From: Escherichia phage RB32
Strand: one strand, 5' to 3'
Sequence record: NC_008515.1
Length of the DNA stretch: 64,000 nt
The notes beneath the pieces are model-generated. The model ran no database searches, had not been told where the DNA came from, and was given only the letters and a program-made list of their open reading frames with translations. Shown piece after piece: positions 15,755 to 37,633 of the stretch. Each line of letters begins with the position of its first letter. Position 1 is the first letter of the stretch. The translations under genes and the position numbers were made by a program.

Positions 15755-15955
15755 ATGGTACAAAAATTAATGGCACTTGTTAATGCCATCAAAGGTAATA
15801 AAAAGCGTATAGCTTTTACTATTTCTGTTATGGTAGGAATTTTACTCTGGAACTTTATTTTATCACCAATTGCAATTGCGCATGGTGTTAATATTCCAGT
15901 AGTTACTCTTGATACATTTGTAGATTTAGCATTTGCTTTAGTTGGGTTAATTTAA
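15755..15955 (+). CDS. small hydrophobic membrane protein on the opposite strand
   Basis: 66-aa ORF preceded by AAGGAGG 5 nt before ATG; two predicted TM segments; stop overlaps the gp61 stop. Confidence 0.5.
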   Translation: MVQKLMALVNAIKGNKKRIAFTISVMVGILLWNFILSPIAIAHGVNIPVVTLDTFVDLAFALVGLI

Positions 15956-16980
15956 ATCTTAGCATATTTAGATAACCGCATTTTAGCCATTAACCCCTGG
16001 GCAATATTATTTTTCATATATTCCATAATTTGTTCAGGGGTTGCACCTTCCTTTCTAATCATATCATTAACATCTTTTGATTTCCAGGGAGATTTATCCC
16101 AAAACATAACCCTTTCTCCTGCATCAACTAATTTAGTCATCCGTTTAATAGTGTCAGGGTGACGAGGTTCATTATCTAAGACCCACACTCGTCTATCTTT
16201 AAATGGAACAATTTCTAGGTCTAATTGACCACCCGTAATAGCTATACCATTTTCAATGAAAAGGGAATCGATAGGTCCTTCTAGAACATATACATCGCCA
16301 TCTTTAACTCGTTCGACTCCATAGATTTTTGTTGCCTCAGGATAAGCTTTGATGGTGATATATTTTTGAGGAGCATCTTTCTTTAATGCACGCCCTTGAA
16401 ACGACTCGGCTTTTCCGTTAGCATTATAAATTGGAATAACAAGACGAGGCTCAGGTATTTCCTTTTTATATGTTCCCGGTGCTATGCTATTAACTAATTT
16501 AGGCCATTCGGTTGTAAACCAAAGATATTTCCATTTATCCTTTGGAATACAACGAGCTTTTACATATTTTATAATTGCATGGTCTTCCGCCAGTTTATCT
16601 AATCTAACGCATGACGGAAGAGATTTAATTATTTTCTTCTCAGGTTGTTTAGGAAGTTCTTTAGGTTTTTCTACTGGACGACTTTTACCTTTTTCTTTTC
16701 TTATTTCAAAGATATACTCACGATATAAATCAGGTTCAAACTCCTTTAAATATATTCCGATTGGTGCATGATAGTTACAGTTATAGCAATGAATATTTCC
16801 TTCATTATTATCACCATAATACCATCCACGAGCTTTATTCTGGTCGGTTTTTGAATCTCCACAAACAGGGCATCTAAACCGTAATTTAAAAGTTGAACTA
16901 TTATTTACTTGTGTGAATTTAGGTAAATGAGCTAATGCACGATACGCAAATTCATTATCAATCCAAGGTATTGATGACAT
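15952..16980 (-). CDS. 61: DNA primase
   Basis: 342-aa ORF, N-terminal zinc ribbon CPVCGDS...CYNCNYH; length equals T4 gp61. Confidence 0.9.
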   Translation of the reverse strand: MSSIPWIDNEFAYRALAHLPKFTQVNNSSTFKLRFRCPVCGDSKTDQNKARGWYYGDNNEGNIHCYNCNYHAPIGIYLKEFEPDLYREYIFEIRKEKGKSRPVEKPKELPKQPEKKIIKSLPSCVRLDKLAEDHAIIKYVKARCIPKDKWKYLWFTTEWPKLVNSIAPGTYKKEIPEPRLVIPIYNANGKAESFQGRALKKDAPQKYITIKAYPEATKIYGVERVKDGDVYVLEGPIDSLFIENGIAITGGQLDLEIVPFKDRRVWVLDNEPRHPDTIKRMTKLVDAGERVMFWDKSPWKSKDVNDMIRKEGATPEQIMEYMKNNIAQGLMAKMRLSKYAKI

Positions 16981-16982
16981 TT

Positions 16983-17147
16983 TTACTCTTCTTTTTCTTT
17001 AGATTCCTCTTTTTTCTTTTTAGGAATCTGTTCAGGACCTTTATTTACTACAGCGCCTGATGTTGTTCCAGTAGAGATATTTTCAGGACTACCACCTGAA
17101 TCTCCAGCGACCATATCTTCTTTGATAAATTCTTTATATGTTTTCAT
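16983..17147 (-). CDS. small Lys/Glu-rich protein with capsid-targeting-like N-terminus, below ORF-track cutoff
   Basis: 54-codon ORF read by hand: MKTYKEFIKEDMVAGDSGGSPENISTGTTSGAVVNKGPEQIPKKKKEESKEKEE; GAGG 7 nt upstream; 2 nt before gp61 ATG. Confidence 0.4.
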   Translation of the reverse strand: MKTYKEFIKEDMVAGDSGGSPENISTGTTSGAVVNKGPEQIPKKKKEESKEKEE

Positions 17148-17192
17148 ATTAACCTCTATTCATAAAAGCATTAAAAATTTGGTCATCAATAG
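17145..17192. repeat. 48-bp direct repeat, copy A (3' end of the 118-aa gene plus RBS/ATG of the next gene)
   Basis: catattaacctctattcataaaagcattaaaaatttggtcatcaatag; copy B at 17503..17550 differs at one position. Confidence 0.8.
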
Positions 17193-17505
17193 ATGGCGCA
17201 GTAATATTTTCTGCATCATTTAGCAAATCATTAATTTCATCAGATAGCATAACACATGTACCTTTATTTCCTGTAATTGTTACTGCGCAATTACGAACGT
17301 TTTCTTTATTAAATTTTAGGTTAATATTTTCGTAATGAAAATCCTTTAATGCTGAATATATTTTTAAAATAAAATTGTCTTTTACTACAATAAACCCAAC
17401 CTCACTATTAAAACGTGGTTCATGGAAACTGTAATAAACCTTTTCATCTATAAAATCGTATGAAATTTTTTCCATTTTTAAATATGAAAATTCAGAACTA
17501 TACAT
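17149..17505 (-). CDS. hypothetical protein; C-terminal 14 aa shared with the upstream gene
   Basis: 118-aa ORF ending SIDDQIFNAFMNRG; flanked by the two 48-bp repeat copies. Confidence 0.55.
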   Translation of the reverse strand: MYSSEFSYLKMEKISYDFIDEKVYYSFHEPRFNSEVGFIVVKDNFILKIYSALKDFHYENINLKFNKENVRNCAVTITGNKGTCVMLSDEINDLLNDAENITAPSIDDQIFNAFMNRG

Positions 17506-17550
17506 ATTAACCTTTATTCATAAAAGCATTAAAAATTTGGTCATCAATAG
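17503..17550. repeat. 48-bp direct repeat, copy B
   Basis: catattaacctttattcataaaagcattaaaaatttggtcatcaatag. Confidence 0.8.
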
Positions 17551-18127
17551 AAACATTTACTTTAGACTGTTTTTCTGATGGTAATTCATATCCACATATT
17601 ACAATTTTGTGATCAATATCAAAATACACAGAAGCAATATGATTAATGATGTTTTCAGTAAAGTCTAAATCAACATCAATATCTTTTTGACCACAGCCCA
17701 AAGGATAAATAATGCGAGTAATTCGATTATCTTTAACAAATATTCCACCGACATACTCTGTGCTGCGTTTAAAGTCTACACGCCGACGAAATGAAAAATA
17801 TTCAGGCTCTCTATGAGCTCGGCTCATAGGACACAACGAGTAACTAGAATAAGAGATGTCAAATCCTACGCCTTCGATATGAGCCAAAGTGTCATGATTA
17901 AACCAATTATAATCGTACGCCAAATCCATTAGATTATAATATGTAAAAGGCACCGGATTAACATCATTAGTCACAAGCATGTAATTAGCAACTGCTATAA
18001 TTTCATTGTTTTTAACGAATACAAACCGTGATTGATGCGAATGACCTGGACCCGCGTTTTCACGATTAATGATATAACACTGAGACTTTTTATATTTGTA
18101 AGAATCATACTTATACATTTGAAACAT
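17507..18127 (-). CDS. hypothetical protein (61.2-like position)
   Basis: 206-aa ORF ending VSIDDQIFNAFMNKG. Confidence 0.55.
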   Translation of the reverse strand: MFQMYKYDSYKYKKSQCYIINRENAGPGHSHQSRFVFVKNNEIIAVANYMLVTNDVNPVPFTYYNLMDLAYDYNWFNHDTLAHIEGVGFDISYSSYSLCPMSRAHREPEYFSFRRRVDFKRSTEYVGGIFVKDNRITRIIYPLGCGQKDIDVDLDFTENIINHIASVYFDIDHKIVICGYELPSEKQSKVNVSIDDQIFNAFMNKG

Positions 18128-18420
18128 TATTCACCTACCACTTCAGCAATGATATTTTTGTTATTAAAGTTTTTATCGCAATACAGAACATAATTATACT
18201 GCATTACACCACCAGACTTAAGCTGTTTTTGCACTTCAGCTTTCATTTCAGGACGATCACGCTTAACGATATTCATAATATCTGCTTCAATTTGAGTTTC
18301 AACCTCAGTCTGATCCGCAGTCATAGACCATTCGCACAAATCTTTATCATAACCTGCCATAGCAGGCTGAGCAGCACAAGAAGCTAAAGCAAAAATTGTG
18401 GCAAAGATAAATTTTTTCAT
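18127..18420 (-). CDS. sp: Spackle periplasmic protein (superinfection exclusion)
   Basis: ORF track 18127..18468; signal peptide begins at internal Met MKKFIFATIFALASCAAQPAMA, giving 97 aa as in T4 Sp. Confidence 0.8.
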   Translation of the reverse strand: MKKFIFATIFALASCAAQPAMAGYDKDLCEWSMTADQTEVETQIEADIMNIVKRDRPEMKAEVQKQLKSGGVMQYNYVLYCDKNFNNKNIIAEVVGE

Positions 18421-18481
18421 GATTAATCTCCTCAGTAGTTTATGTTTATATAGTATCTCAATTTCCAATAAAAGTAAACAG

Positions 18482-18742
18482 TTATTTTAAAACTTTTGCG
18501 TAATCACATGTTACAAACTGTTTCTCTAGCTTAACGATCTTACGAAAATACCTTTTACACTGACGAATCTGTCGCTTCGTAGGACGTACAGCAAACTTAA
18601 TAAATTCCACTCGACCAAATGGAGGACTTTCTTCTGCTGGAATATCTAACACCAATTCCCACGTATCTGCAATAAGTGCTTTGAATTGCGTATTTTTCCT
18701 GACGTTATACGGAGTAGTAGGTTTAAATAAAACAATATGCAT
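18482..18742 (-). CDS. hypothetical protein (61.4 position)
   Basis: ORF track 18482..18784; internal Met at 18742 avoids overlap with dmd. Confidence 0.5.
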   Translation of the reverse strand: MHIVLFKPTTPYNVRKNTQFKALIADTWELVLDIPAEESPPFGRVEFIKFAVRPTKRQIRQCKRYFRKIVKLEKQFVTCDYAKVLK

Positions 18743-18743
18743 A

Positions 18744-18926
18744 TTATCCTCGGCAATCCACTTCGCACACTTTCTTGTCATCAATGAAAGCTTTAACTAA
18801 TGCTTTATTAACTTCAGCATACTGAGTAGTAGCCCATTGAACGTCATCTTTCATCATTGTGGTTTCTTTAGTAAACATGCTTTCATTCTTAAACCACCCC
18901 ATAAAAACTACCTTTACCAATTCCAT
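18744..18926 (-). CDS. dmd: Dmd antitoxin (inhibitor of host RnlA/LsoA mRNA endoribonucleases)
   Basis: 60-aa ORF MELVKVVFMGWFKNESMFTKE...DDKKVCEVDCRG matches T4 Dmd (gene 61.5) as recalled. Confidence 0.85.
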   Translation of the reverse strand: MELVKVVFMGWFKNESMFTKETTMMKDDVQWATTQYAEVNKALVKAFIDDKKVCEVDCRG

Positions 18927-18984
18927 AACAATCTCCTCATTTAACCAACAAGACTACTATACCATAGTCTCGTCAGCTTGTAAA

Positions 18985-20412
18985 CTAAAATTTTAATTCA
19001 TTTGCCAAAGCATCTAACTGAGCTCGAGTCGATTCGTTTCTTTGATAGCGATTCTGTTCAGCCTGAATCTGCTGTGAACCTGCTACCTCACTCACTTCAC
19101 TTGGAGTAGAATCTTGTTCAATTTCTACCCATTTCTGATTTCCTTTTTGAACACCCATCAAAAACTTATTCCATTTGTTCTTATCACCATATCGTGATTT
19201 GATTTGCTTAATAAGTTGTTGTTCAGCAGCTGCTAACTCCTCGGTTTCAATGACCGCAAGCATAAAATCAGCTGTTGCTGGAAGACCGGCAGATTCTGCG
19301 ATATCGCTCATGTTAACATCAGAAGAATCCCAAGCTTGTTTACCAACCTGTGCTGCAGTCCAAAGAACAGTTTCGGTTTCAACAGCCAGAGCACGCAATT
19401 CCTCTGCAATAGCTTTAACAGTTGTGTAACTATTTTCTGAATAAACCCGGATGCGACAAGATTTACAAATACCTAGATAGTCGACAATAATGATTGTTGG
19501 AACAAAATTCTTCTTGAGCTTCAATTCGTTTAAAAGTGATCGAAATGTATTAGCGTCTGCTCCACCAGTAGGATACTGTTTAACGATTAAACGACCGAGA
19601 GTAGATTTCTCACGCCATTTTTCCATTTTTCCTTTATACTCAGCGTAAGAAATATGCCCATCATCAATGTCATCAAGAGAAACATCAAGCATATTAGCAT
19701 CAATACGCTTAGCGCAGACTTCTTCTGCCATTTCCATGGAAATGTAAAGAACATTATGTCCGAGCTGTAAATAATCTGCCGCCAATGAACACAGACCTAA
19801 TGATTTACCAACGTTAACGCCAGCCATTAAAACGTTCAGTGTTCCAGTTTCAGCTCCGCCTTTCGTAATTTTGTTTAGAATTCTGAGTTTAAATGGAACC
19901 TTACGAGCTTTATTCATATAAGATAGCCAACGTGCTTCGTAGTCATCCATCCAATCATGACCAACGTAACTATCAAATGAAATTGATAATGCCTGGCGCA
20001 TGATGTCAGGAATAGCACCTACATCTGGCATTTTCTTATTTCGTTTTTCCGGAGGAAGTTCAGCATTAGTTTGAATTTCGATTATTTTAGACGTAGCATT
20101 AAACATCGCCCTTTGCTGAACATATTTTTCTGTTTCTTTTACTAACCAGCTGTGGTCTTCCGGAGAATCAGCCAGTTTTGAAATAAGTGTTTTTACACCA
20201 GAATATTCTGTTTCAGTAAATGAACTATTTTCTAATGCAACATTTAACGCATTAATAGATGGAACGCTATGATACTCATTGACATGAGATTTAATTAATT
20301 TGAATGTATTTTTAGCTGGACCACTTTCAAAATATTCTGAATCCATATATGGCCAAACTTTTGAAAAATAAGCTTGATCAAATATGAGATGAGAAAGAAT
20401 AATTTCTACCAC
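18985..20412 (-). CDS. 41: replicative DNA helicase (DnaB-like)
   Basis: 475-aa ORF with Walker A GVNVGKS; length equals T4 gp41. Confidence 0.9.
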   Translation of the reverse strand: MVEIILSHLIFDQAYFSKVWPYMDSEYFESGPAKNTFKLIKSHVNEYHSVPSINALNVALENSSFTETEYSGVKTLISKLADSPEDHSWLVKETEKYVQQRAMFNATSKIIEIQTNAELPPEKRNKKMPDVGAIPDIMRQALSISFDSYVGHDWMDDYEARWLSYMNKARKVPFKLRILNKITKGGAETGTLNVLMAGVNVGKSLGLCSLAADYLQLGHNVLYISMEMAEEVCAKRIDANMLDVSLDDIDDGHISYAEYKGKMEKWREKSTLGRLIVKQYPTGGADANTFRSLLNELKLKKNFVPTIIIVDYLGICKSCRIRVYSENSYTTVKAIAEELRALAVETETVLWTAAQVGKQAWDSSDVNMSDIAESAGLPATADFMLAVIETEELAAAEQQLIKQIKSRYGDKNKWNKFLMGVQKGNQKWVEIEQDSTPSEVSEVAGSQQIQAEQNRYQRNESTRAQLDALANELKF

Positions 20413-24571: not shown

Positions 24572-27268
24572 TCAGCCAAACAGGAAGTCTAACGAAGCTT
24601 TTTCTTCATAGTCCATGCCAGCCGATTCACACATACCCGCAAGCGGTTTAACAAACGATTTTTGGAACAAAGTTGAGTGGTCAATCCAAGATAGTACGTC
24701 AGAACGAATTTCTTTTGGAAGTTCTGTACCCGATGGCCAAGCAATGCACTTGTCACCAAATGGATTTCCTTCACGTAATGGAAGAACCATTACTTTATTT
24801 CCATCCAAAATTGGAGCTACACCCAGACCACTAACAGCTCGACGATAAGTTAGCACACCGCGAATATGGAACGGGCATTTAAATCCTGGCCAACCTTTAT
24901 CATCATATTTCGCTATATCGTTCGCAGTTTTTACTTCAGCAATAACTTTATAGTCGAGTTGACGATATTCTTTCTCGAAGTTCTTGTAATATTCTTGGAC
25001 AGACTCTTCGCCTTCCTGAAGAATACGACGAATACTTTCTTCGAGAGCTTCTTGCACTGCTTTTGGTGTTGAACTCTGCTGAGTTTCCATACCCATAATT
25101 TTTAGATGCGGTTCAGCAAATCGTTTATCTTCCATATCATAAACGTTCAGAGCATAACGCTTTTTCGCTTTCCAAAATCCACCAACGCCCTTTGAACCAA
25201 GTGGAGGACAAGAAATAGCTTCACGGTCCATATGCATCAGATGCTCGCGGTTATTCATATAATCGCATAACTCACGATATGCAACATCAATCATAGGTTC
25301 CATCTTTTTCTTACCGAACTGATTCATAAATTCAACCAAATCGTTCTGCTCTTTGAATCGGTCAAGACCAACTTTTTCAATAACTTTATCTACACAAACA
25401 TATACCGAATCAGTATCACCTGCTGCGATGAAATCTTCATCATTAGTTCCGCATACTTTATTCAGATATTCATTAATTTTACGAGCAATCCACTGAATAC
25501 CGACTTGGCCAAAAATTGTGATAGCAGTAGCATTTCGCAAATCATAGTAACGGAAATGAATATTACCAAGAGCACCATAAAGACTGTTAATAAGAATTTT
25601 ACGGTTCAGCTGATTTGTATTAGCAAGTGTAGCAGCTTTTTCACATTCCTCAATCAGACTATTGAGAACAGATTCAGTATAATTCGACAGTTCATTTAAG
25701 AAATCATCATTGAACTTAACATATCGTTCAACTTCTGGTTTAGTTGAACAGGACCCTGCGCCTTTCATAATAATCTTTTTAATAGCTTCGGCATTCATTT
25801 CTTCAGCGAACATTTTCTTTTTCCAGTCTTTACGCTGGAAAAATACTTTAGCGATTTCCTTTGGAATGATACCTTCTTGATGCTTATCATACATCCATCC
25901 ATTCGGAGAACAAGAATATTCATCACTCGGTTTAGGAGCTGTTCCTGCGATATATTCATGAATTGGATGAACTTTAAACTGCCCACGAATAGTCTCAGGA
26001 CTAATGTTAACCTGACGAATAATGCTCGGATACAGAGACGTCAAGTCAAAACTCATAATATATCGACGAGCAATTGGTTTAGGTTCAAATACAAATGCAC
26101 CCGGAAAACTTTGTTTAACGTGTGAACCTTGTTGAGGAATAACCTTATGTTCACCTTTCAATGAGTTAAAAATAATAGCATCCCAAGTTTTAATAGGACT
26201 CATTACACCGGAAAAAGGCATTTTAGCGTAATAAGACATACTTAAAACTAGATCAATAAACCCACGAATTTTATCAATTGCTTGAACTGATTCTACGTCA
26301 ATGATGTTATAACTAATGTATCGTTGATGATTAGTCTCACGAAGTTTATTAATAGGACCGTCGTATGGTAATTTACCCTTTTTGGTTTCATGTTGAGCAA
26401 CTGATTCCAAAGAGAATGACGGCAAATTAGTAAAAGCGAATTTCTTGTACAAATCTAAATAATCAAGAATAGATACGCCATCAATAGAATAAATTTCTTT
26501 GCTACCGTACATATTTTGAATTAGTTTAGATTTTACTCGACCGATTGGAGAGAAGCGTTTCATACTACGTTCACCGAGAACCATTTTAACGCGATTCATG
26601 ATATACGGAACGTCAAATCCCTCAATATTCCAACCAGTAAAAATAGCAGGTCGTTTCTGTTCCCAGAGATTGATATATTCCATGAGCATATCACGCTCAT
26701 TATCGAATGGCATATAAATTACTCGGTCAAGAATTTCTTGAGGAACTTCATCACCACCTTCGCAGTCGAGCTTAGCAGCTAACTTTGCATCCCATTTTGA
26801 TACTGAACCGTACATTGAATTCAACAAATCAAAGACGTAAAAACGATCGTCAATTGAATCATAATGAGTGATAGCATCAATTTCATATTCTGCTTTCATT
26901 GGGTCAGGAAATTTATCACCAGTAACCTCAATGTCGCAGTTAGCTACACGAACAAATTTTCGGTCATAAACAATTTCTGAACCATATGTATCACTGATGT
27001 AAGCGAGTTTAAAATCGTTCATACCGAGAGCTTCGAGACCGATGTCTTCCATTCGCTTCATCCAGTCTCGCGCATCTTTCATTGATGGAAATTTTTGAGG
27101 AGCGCAATTTTTACCATAAATGTCTTTGTATTTTGACTCTTCCTTACAATGTCTAAACATAGTTGGAAGATATTCTACTTCGCGAGTACGTTCCTTTCCA
27201 TTTTCATCAATATAACGTTCAACAATATTATTTCCGACTGTTTCGATAGAGATATAAAATTCTTTCAT
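24572..27268 (-). CDS. 43: DNA polymerase (family B)
   Basis: 898-aa ORF, exo motif FDIE, polymerase motif GDTDS; length equals T4 gp43. Confidence 0.95.
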   Translation of the reverse strand: MKEFYISIETVGNNIVERYIDENGKERTREVEYLPTMFRHCKEESKYKDIYGKNCAPQKFPSMKDARDWMKRMEDIGLEALGMNDFKLAYISDTYGSEIVYDRKFVRVANCDIEVTGDKFPDPMKAEYEIDAITHYDSIDDRFYVFDLLNSMYGSVSKWDAKLAAKLDCEGGDEVPQEILDRVIYMPFDNERDMLMEYINLWEQKRPAIFTGWNIEGFDVPYIMNRVKMVLGERSMKRFSPIGRVKSKLIQNMYGSKEIYSIDGVSILDYLDLYKKFAFTNLPSFSLESVAQHETKKGKLPYDGPINKLRETNHQRYISYNIIDVESVQAIDKIRGFIDLVLSMSYYAKMPFSGVMSPIKTWDAIIFNSLKGEHKVIPQQGSHVKQSFPGAFVFEPKPIARRYIMSFDLTSLYPSIIRQVNISPETIRGQFKVHPIHEYIAGTAPKPSDEYSCSPNGWMYDKHQEGIIPKEIAKVFFQRKDWKKKMFAEEMNAEAIKKIIMKGAGSCSTKPEVERYVKFNDDFLNELSNYTESVLNSLIEECEKAATLANTNQLNRKILINSLYGALGNIHFRYYDLRNATAITIFGQVGIQWIARKINEYLNKVCGTNDEDFIAAGDTDSVYVCVDKVIEKVGLDRFKEQNDLVEFMNQFGKKKMEPMIDVAYRELCDYMNNREHLMHMDREAISCPPLGSKGVGGFWKAKKRYALNVYDMEDKRFAEPHLKIMGMETQQSSTPKAVQEALEESIRRILQEGEESVQEYYKNFEKEYRQLDYKVIAEVKTANDIAKYDDKGWPGFKCPFHIRGVLTYRRAVSGLGVAPILDGNKVMVLPLREGNPFGDKCIAWPSGTELPKEIRSDVLSWIDHSTLFQKSFVKPLAGMCESAGMDYEEKASLDFLFG

Positions 27269-36873: not shown

Positions 36874-37092
36874 TTATTTCTCTAATATAAAATAAAAATC
36901 ATCATCTGTTAAATGATACCGATAGTTTAATTCTACACCATTAGATTTAAAAGCGGTATCATACGGATTTTCTGGATCAATATCAATGTCAAGAGCTAAA
37001 ACTTCCCTGAGATACATTTTAAGTAAATAGGGAATAGCTTCAACTTCAGGTATTTCTTCCAAGAATCCGGAGAGGTTAATCGTTAGCCTCAT
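36874..37092 (-). CDS. hypothetical protein
   Basis: 72-aa ORF. Confidence 0.5.
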
Positions 37093-37633
37093 ATAAAAAA
37101 TCCAAACTAGGAGAATCGTCTACAACACTTTTCTTTTCAGCCCCCGGTGTTCTATAGGTTGATTCTTCGTAATGCGTCATTTTATCGTAGATGTCTTGAA
37201 TAAAAGTTTCATCTACTAACGCAACCATATCGTCGTCACGGCTGTCATAGACATTGTGAACGAAGTAACTATATTTCTTTGCAACTTCCTTACGTTCTTT
37301 TTTAATACGTTGGACGAATGCATTAAAACAAGCTTGAGTTATATACGCATGTGGGTTTTTATATTTCGTTTCATCAAAATTATGAAGCCCCTTAATAGAA
37401 GCTTCTATACCATCTGCAATCATTTCTTGTTTCCAAGACTGGGTGTATCCTGAAAAGTTGAAACGTTTAGATAAGCCTTCTGCAATAAGCATAATGGCTA
37501 ATCCGATAGTATCATTCTGACGAACTACTTTATTTGGGTCTTTATTATTTGCTAATTCTGTTTTCCAATCAATAATAGCTTGTAAAAGCTCTTTATTGTT
37601 TACGTAATTATATTTAGGCTTAGTTTCTGACAT
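37076..37633 (-). CDS. 55: late-transcription sigma factor gp55
   Basis: [24 protein letters not shown]...; 185 aa from the MSETK start, as T4 gp55. Confidence 0.9.

Follow-up and report, generated by a model that had tools for sequence, protein, structure and literature searches.

The small genes between genes 61 and 41

Six small genes are packed between gene 61 and gene 41 in a 64,000-nucleotide (nt) stretch of Escherichia phage RB32 (NC_008515.1; this whole stretch is referred to as the window), and one of them, encoding a protein of 118 amino acids (aa), is bracketed by two copies of a direct repeat. According to the list of open reading frames (ORFs) every one of the six genes is located on the minus strand. 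Enterobacteria phage RB33 (KM607001.1), a Tequatrovirus, has the same sequence in this region (100% identity), and the name RB33 is used here for the window's sequence.

A repeat search of positions 16500-19500 yielded one long direct-repeat family, i.e. two 49-nt copies that differ by one mismatch and are located at 17145-17193 and 17503-17551 with a spacing of 358 base pairs (bp). Within the window there are two occurrences of a 23-nt core taken from the repeat; two matches were found in 0 of 100 shuffles. On the coding strand each copy reads TCT ATT GAT GAC CAA ATT TTT AAT GCT TTT ATG AAT A[G/A]A GGT TAA T ATG and is composed of 14 codons (SIDDQIFNAFMN[R/K]G), the TAA stop codon, one T, and the ATG of the next gene. 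In copy 1 (17145-17193), read on the minus strand, the 118-aa gene contributes its final 14 codons (…SIDDQIFNAFMNRG) and TAA, and after the T gene 61.1 begins with its ATG; this copy includes the Shine-Dalgarno sequence GAGGT. In copy 2 (17503-17551), on the same strand, the 14 codons (…SIDDQIFNAFMNKG) and TAA are the end of adfA (gene 61.2), and the ATG after the T is that of the 118-aa gene; here the Shine-Dalgarno sequence is weakened to AAGGT. The final two codons together with the stop (AGA GGT TAA, with AGA or CGA across genera) contain the GAGGT that constitutes the Shine-Dalgarno sequence of the next gene, the ATG of which follows one base after the stop, and the mismatch (AGA to AAA) replaces Arg by Lys in the protein and turns the GAGG of this Shine-Dalgarno sequence into AAGG. 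The 49-bp repeat is made up of the conserved 3' end that both genes possess and of a stop-T-ATG junction. A preliminary description of this DNA had given the repeat as 48 bp long; the repeats around the 118-aa gene and the content it had assigned to each copy, i.e. a shared C-terminal peptide, stop, ribosome-binding site and next ATG, are borne out on the coding strand.

A weakened Shine-Dalgarno sequence is located just upstream of the mini gene, as we refer to the 118-aa gene and its counterparts, in three forms, AAAGGT (RB33-type, 17503-17551), AGAGAT (phage phiD1, 2349-2397), and CGAGAT (phage VR7, ~1955-2003), and the junction downstream of the mini gene retains GAGGT. The weakened sequence may tune expression of the mini gene.

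The island is flanked by gene 61, coding for the DNA primase (15952-16980, minus strand, a 342-aa ORF), and gene 41, coding for the replicative helicase (18985-20412, minus strand, 475 aa from the first GTG), both identified by ORF and by the annotation in the identical RB33 record. Next to gene 41 and upstream of dmd-tifA lies a site that resembles an early promoter (18956-18984, minus strand; TTTACA-17-TATAGT plus an upstream TG, 10/12 matches), and in T4 an early promoter is known to drive dmd-tifA (PMC9391042). The gene dmd (61.5; 18744-18926, 60 aa; Pfam Dmd, E-value 1.8e-45) encodes the antitoxin against RnlA/LsoA, and it is followed by tifA (61.4; 18482-18742, 86 aa; Pfam DUF7279, E 2.6e-20), encoding a ToxN inhibitor, the name of which comes from the renaming of T4 61.4 as anti-ToxIN factor (PMC9391042). 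The next gene, sp (spackle, gene 61.3; 18127-18420, 97 aa; Pfam T4_Spackle, E 1.6e-44), codes for a periplasmic protein, and gene 61.1 (16983-17147, 54 aa; phrog_1823, E 2.4e-33), of unknown function, is located downstream of repeat copy 1. None of the six island proteins matches a family in NCBIfam.

The preliminary description had recognized dmd and sp, in agreement with Pfam, and had missed that 61.4 is tifA. It had also placed sp within the counter-defence set, which does not fit the role of spackle, i.e. superinfection exclusion and not counter-defence; the note on sp in the T2 record mentions lysis phenotypes only. Its view that the locus has known anti-toxin functions agrees with the literature: the region between genes 41 and 61 has been proposed as a possible "anti-TA island" (TA, toxin-antitoxin), the other genes of which were called attractive anti-toxin candidates (Srikant et al. 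2022, PMC9391042). In the window all three known anti-toxin genes, dmd, tifA, and adfA, are located there, as identified by Pfam Dmd, DUF7279, and AdfA.

Compact stop/start junctions recur across the island. The TAA-T-ATG arrangement present at both tails also joins dmd to tifA (18743-18746), and the stop of sp overlaps the ATG of adfA by one base (18127), an organization that suggests translational coupling along the operon. The 61.1 protein (54 aa, 16983-17147) additionally matches positions 109-154 of phrog_2086, a 156-aa family (E 2.3e-16), and may correspond to the C-terminal part of a longer protein, here encoded separately. The tag 'major capsid domain-containing protein' that 61.1 carries in several GenBank records looks like a mis-annotation.

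The 118-aa protein, AdfA and their common C-terminus

The gene upstream of the 118-aa gene (17507-18127, minus strand) is adfA, coding for anti-DarT factor A. Its 206-aa product matches Pfam PF23813 over its full length (residues 1-206 on model positions 2-211; 429 bits with a cut-off of 27, E 2.9e-129) and is 95% identical to the T4-type protein cluster P0006. Moreover, the gene directly follows sp and precedes 61.1 and 61, and an ortholog is labelled anti-DarT factor A in the records of vB_EcoM_P8 and Ec_O157kw. The suggestion in the preliminary description that the 206-aa gene is a new counter-defence candidate is thus superseded. Residue H163 of RB33 AdfA, located in the sequence IINHIAS, is equivalent to the R164H substitution of RB69, the RB69-type protein having NINRIAS (the offset between RB69 and RB33 residue numbers was taken from a published primer). 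RB69 AdfA(R164H) binds DarT1, and binding and neutralisation of DarT1 have been reported for RB69 AdfA(R164H) and T4 AdfA in two papers, one of them PMC9391042. A search of PDB sequences with AdfA gave no match.

The 118-aa gene (17149-17505, minus strand), a variable cassette that we term 'mini-AdfA', encodes a protein for which an α/β domain, a flexible linker, and a conserved tail helix are predicted. It has a PHROG of its own (phrog_4122, E 4.4e-72) and matches the PHROG of AdfA weakly, with the tail included. In Pfam it matches AdfA with 32.2 bits (cut-off 27), on model positions 113-211 only and likewise with the tail included. When the 14-residue tail is left out, the body aligns to AdfA residues 106-162 with ~34% identity (57-65 residues aligned); BLASTP of the tail-less bodies gives E 0.011 and 34% identity over 65 residues, a Smith-Waterman shuffle test of the tail-less 118-aa body P 0.003 for the C-terminal half of AdfA and P 0.016 for its whole body, and profile-profile comparison of tail-less sequences (hhalign) E-values of 0.004-0.014. 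The earlier statement that the two proteins end in the same peptide and differ in the rest of their sequences is correct as to the tail, and only partly so as to the rest. An exhaustive phmmer search with the 118-aa protein returned just two more representatives of the mini family and two long repetitive proteins, which we treated as spurious.

The 118-aa protein consists of one domain that aligns only to the C-terminal half of AdfA, i.e. it does not have the two-half architecture of ~206-216 aa, and at the specificity residue of AdfA (His/Arg) it has a Cys. AlphaFold2 models it with a predicted local distance difference test (pLDDT) of 82 and a predicted template modelling score of 0.71 as five strands, a helix, a strand, and a helix, followed by a linker (residues 102-105, pLDDT < 50) and a tail helix (106-115) of low confidence. 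In the AdfA model the strands and a helix of the C-terminal half follow one another as they do in the 118-aa model, a further helix (residues 194-203) lies at the C-terminus, and the predicted strands and helices of the two proteins are in register with the sequence alignment. With the 118-aa model as query, Foldseek found only family members among the BFVD viral models at E <= 0.001 (lengths 118, 212, 157, and 145 aa), the match to the 212-aa member having an E-value of 1.1e-4 with the tail included. We read the 118-aa protein as a probable paralog, one domain in size, of the AdfA C-terminal half, with modest sequence evidence when the tail is left out.

The tail extends well beyond these two proteins. 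Its consensus, S[IV]DDQIFNAFM[NK]R[GD], is near-invariant in at least three gene families that are found in the same slot in four genera of the Tevenvirinae. A search with a profile of the C-terminal domains yielded 71 proteins, all from T4-like phages, which fall into three length classes: AdfA with 206-216 aa, the mini form with 116-125 aa, and a third family with 143-148 aa. In 48 aligned members Q109, I110, F111, F114, and M115 are invariant and D107, D108, N112, A113, and G118 nearly so; the bodies of the most distant family are just 21-26% identical to the 118-aa query. Within the bodies the three families can be aligned over a core, G-x-[IF]-x-V-[KD]-D-x-x-I, in which G37 is invariant and V41 nearly so. 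In Dhakavirus Bp7 the slot after sp is occupied by a 146-aa form, in Mosigvirus SCS57 by AdfA, and in Gaprivervirus VR7 by two genes in tandem, first a 145-aa form and then a mini form of 119 aa, both with a tail. Between the genera the tail codons vary synonymously (GCT/GCA/GCC, CAA/CAG, AGA/CGA), and therefore selection acts on the peptide. Judged by this pattern of conservation, the tail is an old, presumably functional motif and not only a recombination scar; it had previously been read as the scar of a recent exchange, a view at odds with its deep conservation and with the synonymous differences in Mosigvirus, Dhakavirus, and Gaprivervirus.

Several further observations concern these proteins. 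Both halves of AdfA hold [FI]VFVK[ND]N-I, and the comparison of the N-terminal with the C-terminal half gives E 0.0018 in hhalign and P 0.024 in a shuffle test, i.e. the N-terminal half may be an internal duplicate of the C-terminal domain. In Shigella phage CT01 (505-1067) adfA, probably a pseudogene there, is broken into two ORFs of 306 bp and 219 bp, and a 157-aa protein of Yersinia phage fPS-65, found as a Foldseek match, looks like a shortened AdfA. Genomes that carry both genes with a 210-aa adfA allele (Ec_O157kw, wV7) have an sp 3' end, …ACCGAAATCACAGG[C/T]GAATAATATGATTTATTA, that is the same as the RB69 sequence in a published gene fragment, which suggests that a segment comprising the sp 3' end and adfA has been exchanged between Mosigvirus and Tequatrovirus. 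In Gaprivervirus (VR7, 2362-2583) and in related IMG/VR contigs of ~170 kb, MFVLTQFS is the N-terminus encoded by the gene that follows the tail-bearing one; the VR7 gene codes for 73 aa, is annotated as 61.4-like, and looks like a second tifA-type gene, another 61.4 homolog being present at the usual place. In the window, an 898-aa ORF (24572-27268) ends in …ASLDFLFG and a 185-aa ORF (37076-37633) ends similarly (SLDFL[FY]). We take these ORFs to be gp43 and gp55, the C-termini of which bind the sliding clamp. The tail, starting with S-I-D-D-Q-I-F, may be likened to these clamp-binding C-termini, a resemblance too weak to be evidence.

Gain, loss and probable recombination at the tail DNA

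Among relatives of RB33 the slot between sp and 61.1 is found in four states: both genes (RB33), adfA only (T4), the 118-aa gene only (T2), and neither (vB_EcoM-CHD94UKE2). T4 corresponds to RB33 minus exactly one 358-bp repeat unit, and the breakpoint can therefore be placed no finer than inside the repeat. The 118-aa gene is a presence/absence cassette, as the preliminary description had proposed, and the possibility it had raised of an old arrangement fixed in all related phages does not apply, as not all of them carry the same six genes. In the phage GenBank collection, which was searched by exact-variant queries with ~20 loci sampled in detail, the 118-aa body occurs in 297 records; in 156 it is adjacent to adfA, and ~141 have the 118-aa gene only. 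(A scan of IMG/VR for the tail gave 13 loci, too few for population statistics.) T2-type and 'neither' genomes have a 13-14-nt junction, AGAGG(T/C)TA(A/G)TATG, after the sp stop, which is the same sequence as the end of the tail.

The single mismatch of the repeat follows the downstream gene and not the gene body in 574/579 junctions. AGAGGT (Arg) is combined with the 61.1 start in 464 records, AGAGGTTAATATG preceding the 61.1 start, and AAAGGT (Lys) with the start of the 118-aa gene in 110; the other combinations, AAAGGT with the 61.1 start (3 records) and AGAGGT with the 118-aa start (2 records), make up the five exceptional junctions, which look like conversions or crossovers 3' of the mismatch site. 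In PinkRuby, for example, Lys is found in both copies, 358 bp apart. Mosaic tails occur as well: RB33 adfA combines the T4-type GAT GAC with Lys, and the tail of the adfA-only phage vB_EcoM_P8 the GAC GAT of the 210-aa allele with an AAC…AGA 3' part known from the 118-aa tail of ZCEC14. In RB33 all 12 degenerate tail codons are identical between the two copies, for which the chance probability, given the peptide and the codon usage of the window, is P = 4.6e-4. The compared records show cassettes that were gained, lost, and swapped with joints inside the repeat and, as it appears, an occasional conversion of one tail by the other. The copies are probably used as a joint by phage homologous recombination because they are nearly identical; T4 has been found experimentally to recombine at microhomologies of 6-10 bp at this locus (PMC9391042).

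Two observations on particular genomes stand apart from this. A T2-type sp/118-aa junction derived from an RB33-type genome via deletion between TGAATA repeats was considered and rejected, the predicted joint being without three bases that are present in T2. In Yersinia phage phiD1 (HE956711.1, 1434-2397) four 49-bp tail copies with spacings of 358, 194, and 358 accompany two full 118-aa genes and a 33-aa fragment. This region contains ambiguous bases; it could stem from genuine tandem amplification, or the repeat could have led to a faulty assembly. On account of these bases phiD1 was set aside as proof of amplification of the 118-aa cassette.

We consider it probable that the sp-61.1 slot of T-even phages holds members of one diversifying gene superfamily, two of which are arranged in tandem in RB33, and that the tail DNA serves as recombination joint. 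Several results weigh against this reading. The Pfam AdfA match of the 118-aa protein is no longer listed once the 14-residue tail is removed, pairwise comparisons with the 145-aa family are not significant, and the AdfA model is of low confidence (pLDDT 66). The bodies of the 118-aa protein and AdfA could, after all, be unrelated and have only a transferred tail in common. In genomes with both genes and the 210-aa adfA allele only 10/12 degenerate codons match (P ~0.035), so homogenisation is not universal, and lineage-specific codon usage could mimic concerted evolution between genera. Finally, the polymorphism could reflect insertion or deletion.

If the bodies are indeed unrelated, the tail would be a portable junction module that recombination pasted onto different genes, and cassette exchange alone would account for the locus. 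The tail-dependent Pfam match and the marginal similarity of the bodies agree with this explanation, and so do the indel breakpoints, which fall at the junction, and the 13-14-nt junction, which is found in all four states. We nevertheless regard it as unlikely, since the three families have the G-x-[IF]-x-V-[KD]-D-x-x-I core with its invariant G37 and nearly invariant V41 in common, the predicted secondary structures are in register, the shuffle test yields P 0.003, and the Foldseek matches are limited to family members. Moreover, the tail has been retained in four genera while its codons changed synonymously; recent transfer alone does not suffice for this, and the peptide must have been under selection for a long time. 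Conversely, the 49-bp identity might result entirely from purifying selection on the peptide and a strong AT-rich codon bias in the phage, with the indels stemming from unrelated events, i.e. recombination would have no role. The invariance of the tail peptide across genera would be expected in this case, and 11/12 degenerate tail codons are indeed the commonest of the window for their residue; however, the identity of 12/12 degenerate codons (P = 4.6e-4), the separation of T4 and RB33 by exactly one repeat unit, the mismatch that tracks the downstream gene with five converted exceptions, the mosaic tails, and the recombination of much shorter homologies at this locus (PMC9391042) render such an explanation highly improbable. 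The smallest probability is assigned to the repeat being a regulatory DNA or RNA element, e.g. a promoter, the nucleotide sequence of which would be conserved for that reason. In the vB_EcoM_Lutter record both tail copies (502-528, 860-886) carry the annotation 'promoter', and a MotA-box-like TGCTTT, read by eye, is located in the repeat with TAATAT 12 nt later. A scan for σ70 sites, on the other hand, found no promoter-like site on the coding strand in either copy, no terminator-like site is present anywhere in 16900-19050, TGCTT is changed in Mosigvirus (TGCATT) and Dhakavirus (TGCCTT) tails while the peptide is conserved, and a transcript beginning there would be without the start codon of the next gene.

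Proposed function and relation to known systems

The one-domain protein and AdfA are alike in their C-terminal tail, a core domain of apparent weak similarity, and their locus, whereas the 118-aa protein is without the N-terminal half of AdfA and has Cys instead of the specificity His/Arg. We propose that all members would bind one common partner via the invariant tail, a tethered amphipathic docking helix, and that the variable body would set target specificity, the latter because the known specificity residue 164 (R164H) is part of the first helix of the presumed common domain. The 118-aa protein might be a toxin-binding inhibitor of a DarT-like or other toxin, different from the DarT1 so far tested, and recombination between the copies might lead to deletion of the 118-aa gene, to a 358-bp circle able to integrate at any tail, or to tandem amplification. 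A counter-defence role of the 118-aa protein is plausible. The fuller version of this scheme is rather doubtful and is put forward as speculation: the tail would be dual-purpose, the peptide being a portable docking helix to one conserved partner (a DarT-like toxin surface or a replisome component) while the body picks the target, and the DNA being a recombination handle through which specificity domains could be swapped, stacked, deleted, or amplified by T-even phages during co-infection, no dedicated recombinase being required; in this scheme the 118-aa protein would count as a new anti-toxin factor, directed at something other than DarT1.

Three points weigh against these functional proposals. 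T2 without adfN cannot plaque on DarTG1 cells, although T2 carries the 118-aa gene alone, which argues against neutralisation of DarT1 by the 118-aa protein at native levels; T4 adfA is likewise dispensable; and the tail partner is putative.

The authors of the DarTG1 study describe T2, which has the 118-aa gene only, as being without an adfA homolog. The anti-TA island of T4 (dmd, tifA, adfA; PMC9391042) and the RB33 region are alike in their locus and in consisting of early toxin-inhibiting genes that evolve via short-homology recombination; unlike here, the 118-aa gene, absent from T4, the shared tail, and the 49-bp repeat are not described in that work, and the amplifications it reports proceed via 6-10 bp microhomologies. 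Short conserved repeats also flank variable genes in hyperplastic regions in the PeSL cassettes of T4-type phages, where they act as recombination joints and mini-circle excision is possible (PMC2839356). Like PeSL, the RB33 repeat flanks genes that are present or absent between close relatives, but it is composed of coding sequence, ribosome-binding site, and start codon, and no promoter-like or terminator-like site was found in it. It further resembles gene 'accordions', e.g. the amplification of T4 tifA, in that direct repeats flank a counter-defence gene, here a putative one, and allow a quick change in copy number, with the difference that for the 118-aa cassette the only candidate is the phiD1 record with its ambiguous bases. 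Poxvirus K3L is another gene accordion, arising via unequal crossing-over between flanking repeats.

The genes adfA, tifA, and dmd and the idea of an anti-TA island are already published, and the gain over the known island is incremental for this reason. In the literature that was searched, neither a short AdfA paralog nor the C-terminal motif was found described; mini-AdfA as a probable paralog, the invariant tail in at least three families, and the triple role of the tail as peptide motif, ribosome-binding site, and recombination joint appear to be new. T2 and ~140 other phages in the database, treated as being without adfA, carry a one-domain relative with the same C-terminal motif, and this motif is the most conserved part of AdfA. 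The locus provides a clean, countable case in which the coding end of a gene serves at the same time as ribosome-binding site and as recombination joint, and the joint in the tail explains a four-state polymorphism in > 500 sequenced genomes. The tail and the mini form could show how AdfA recognizes its targets and may reveal another anti-toxin factor.

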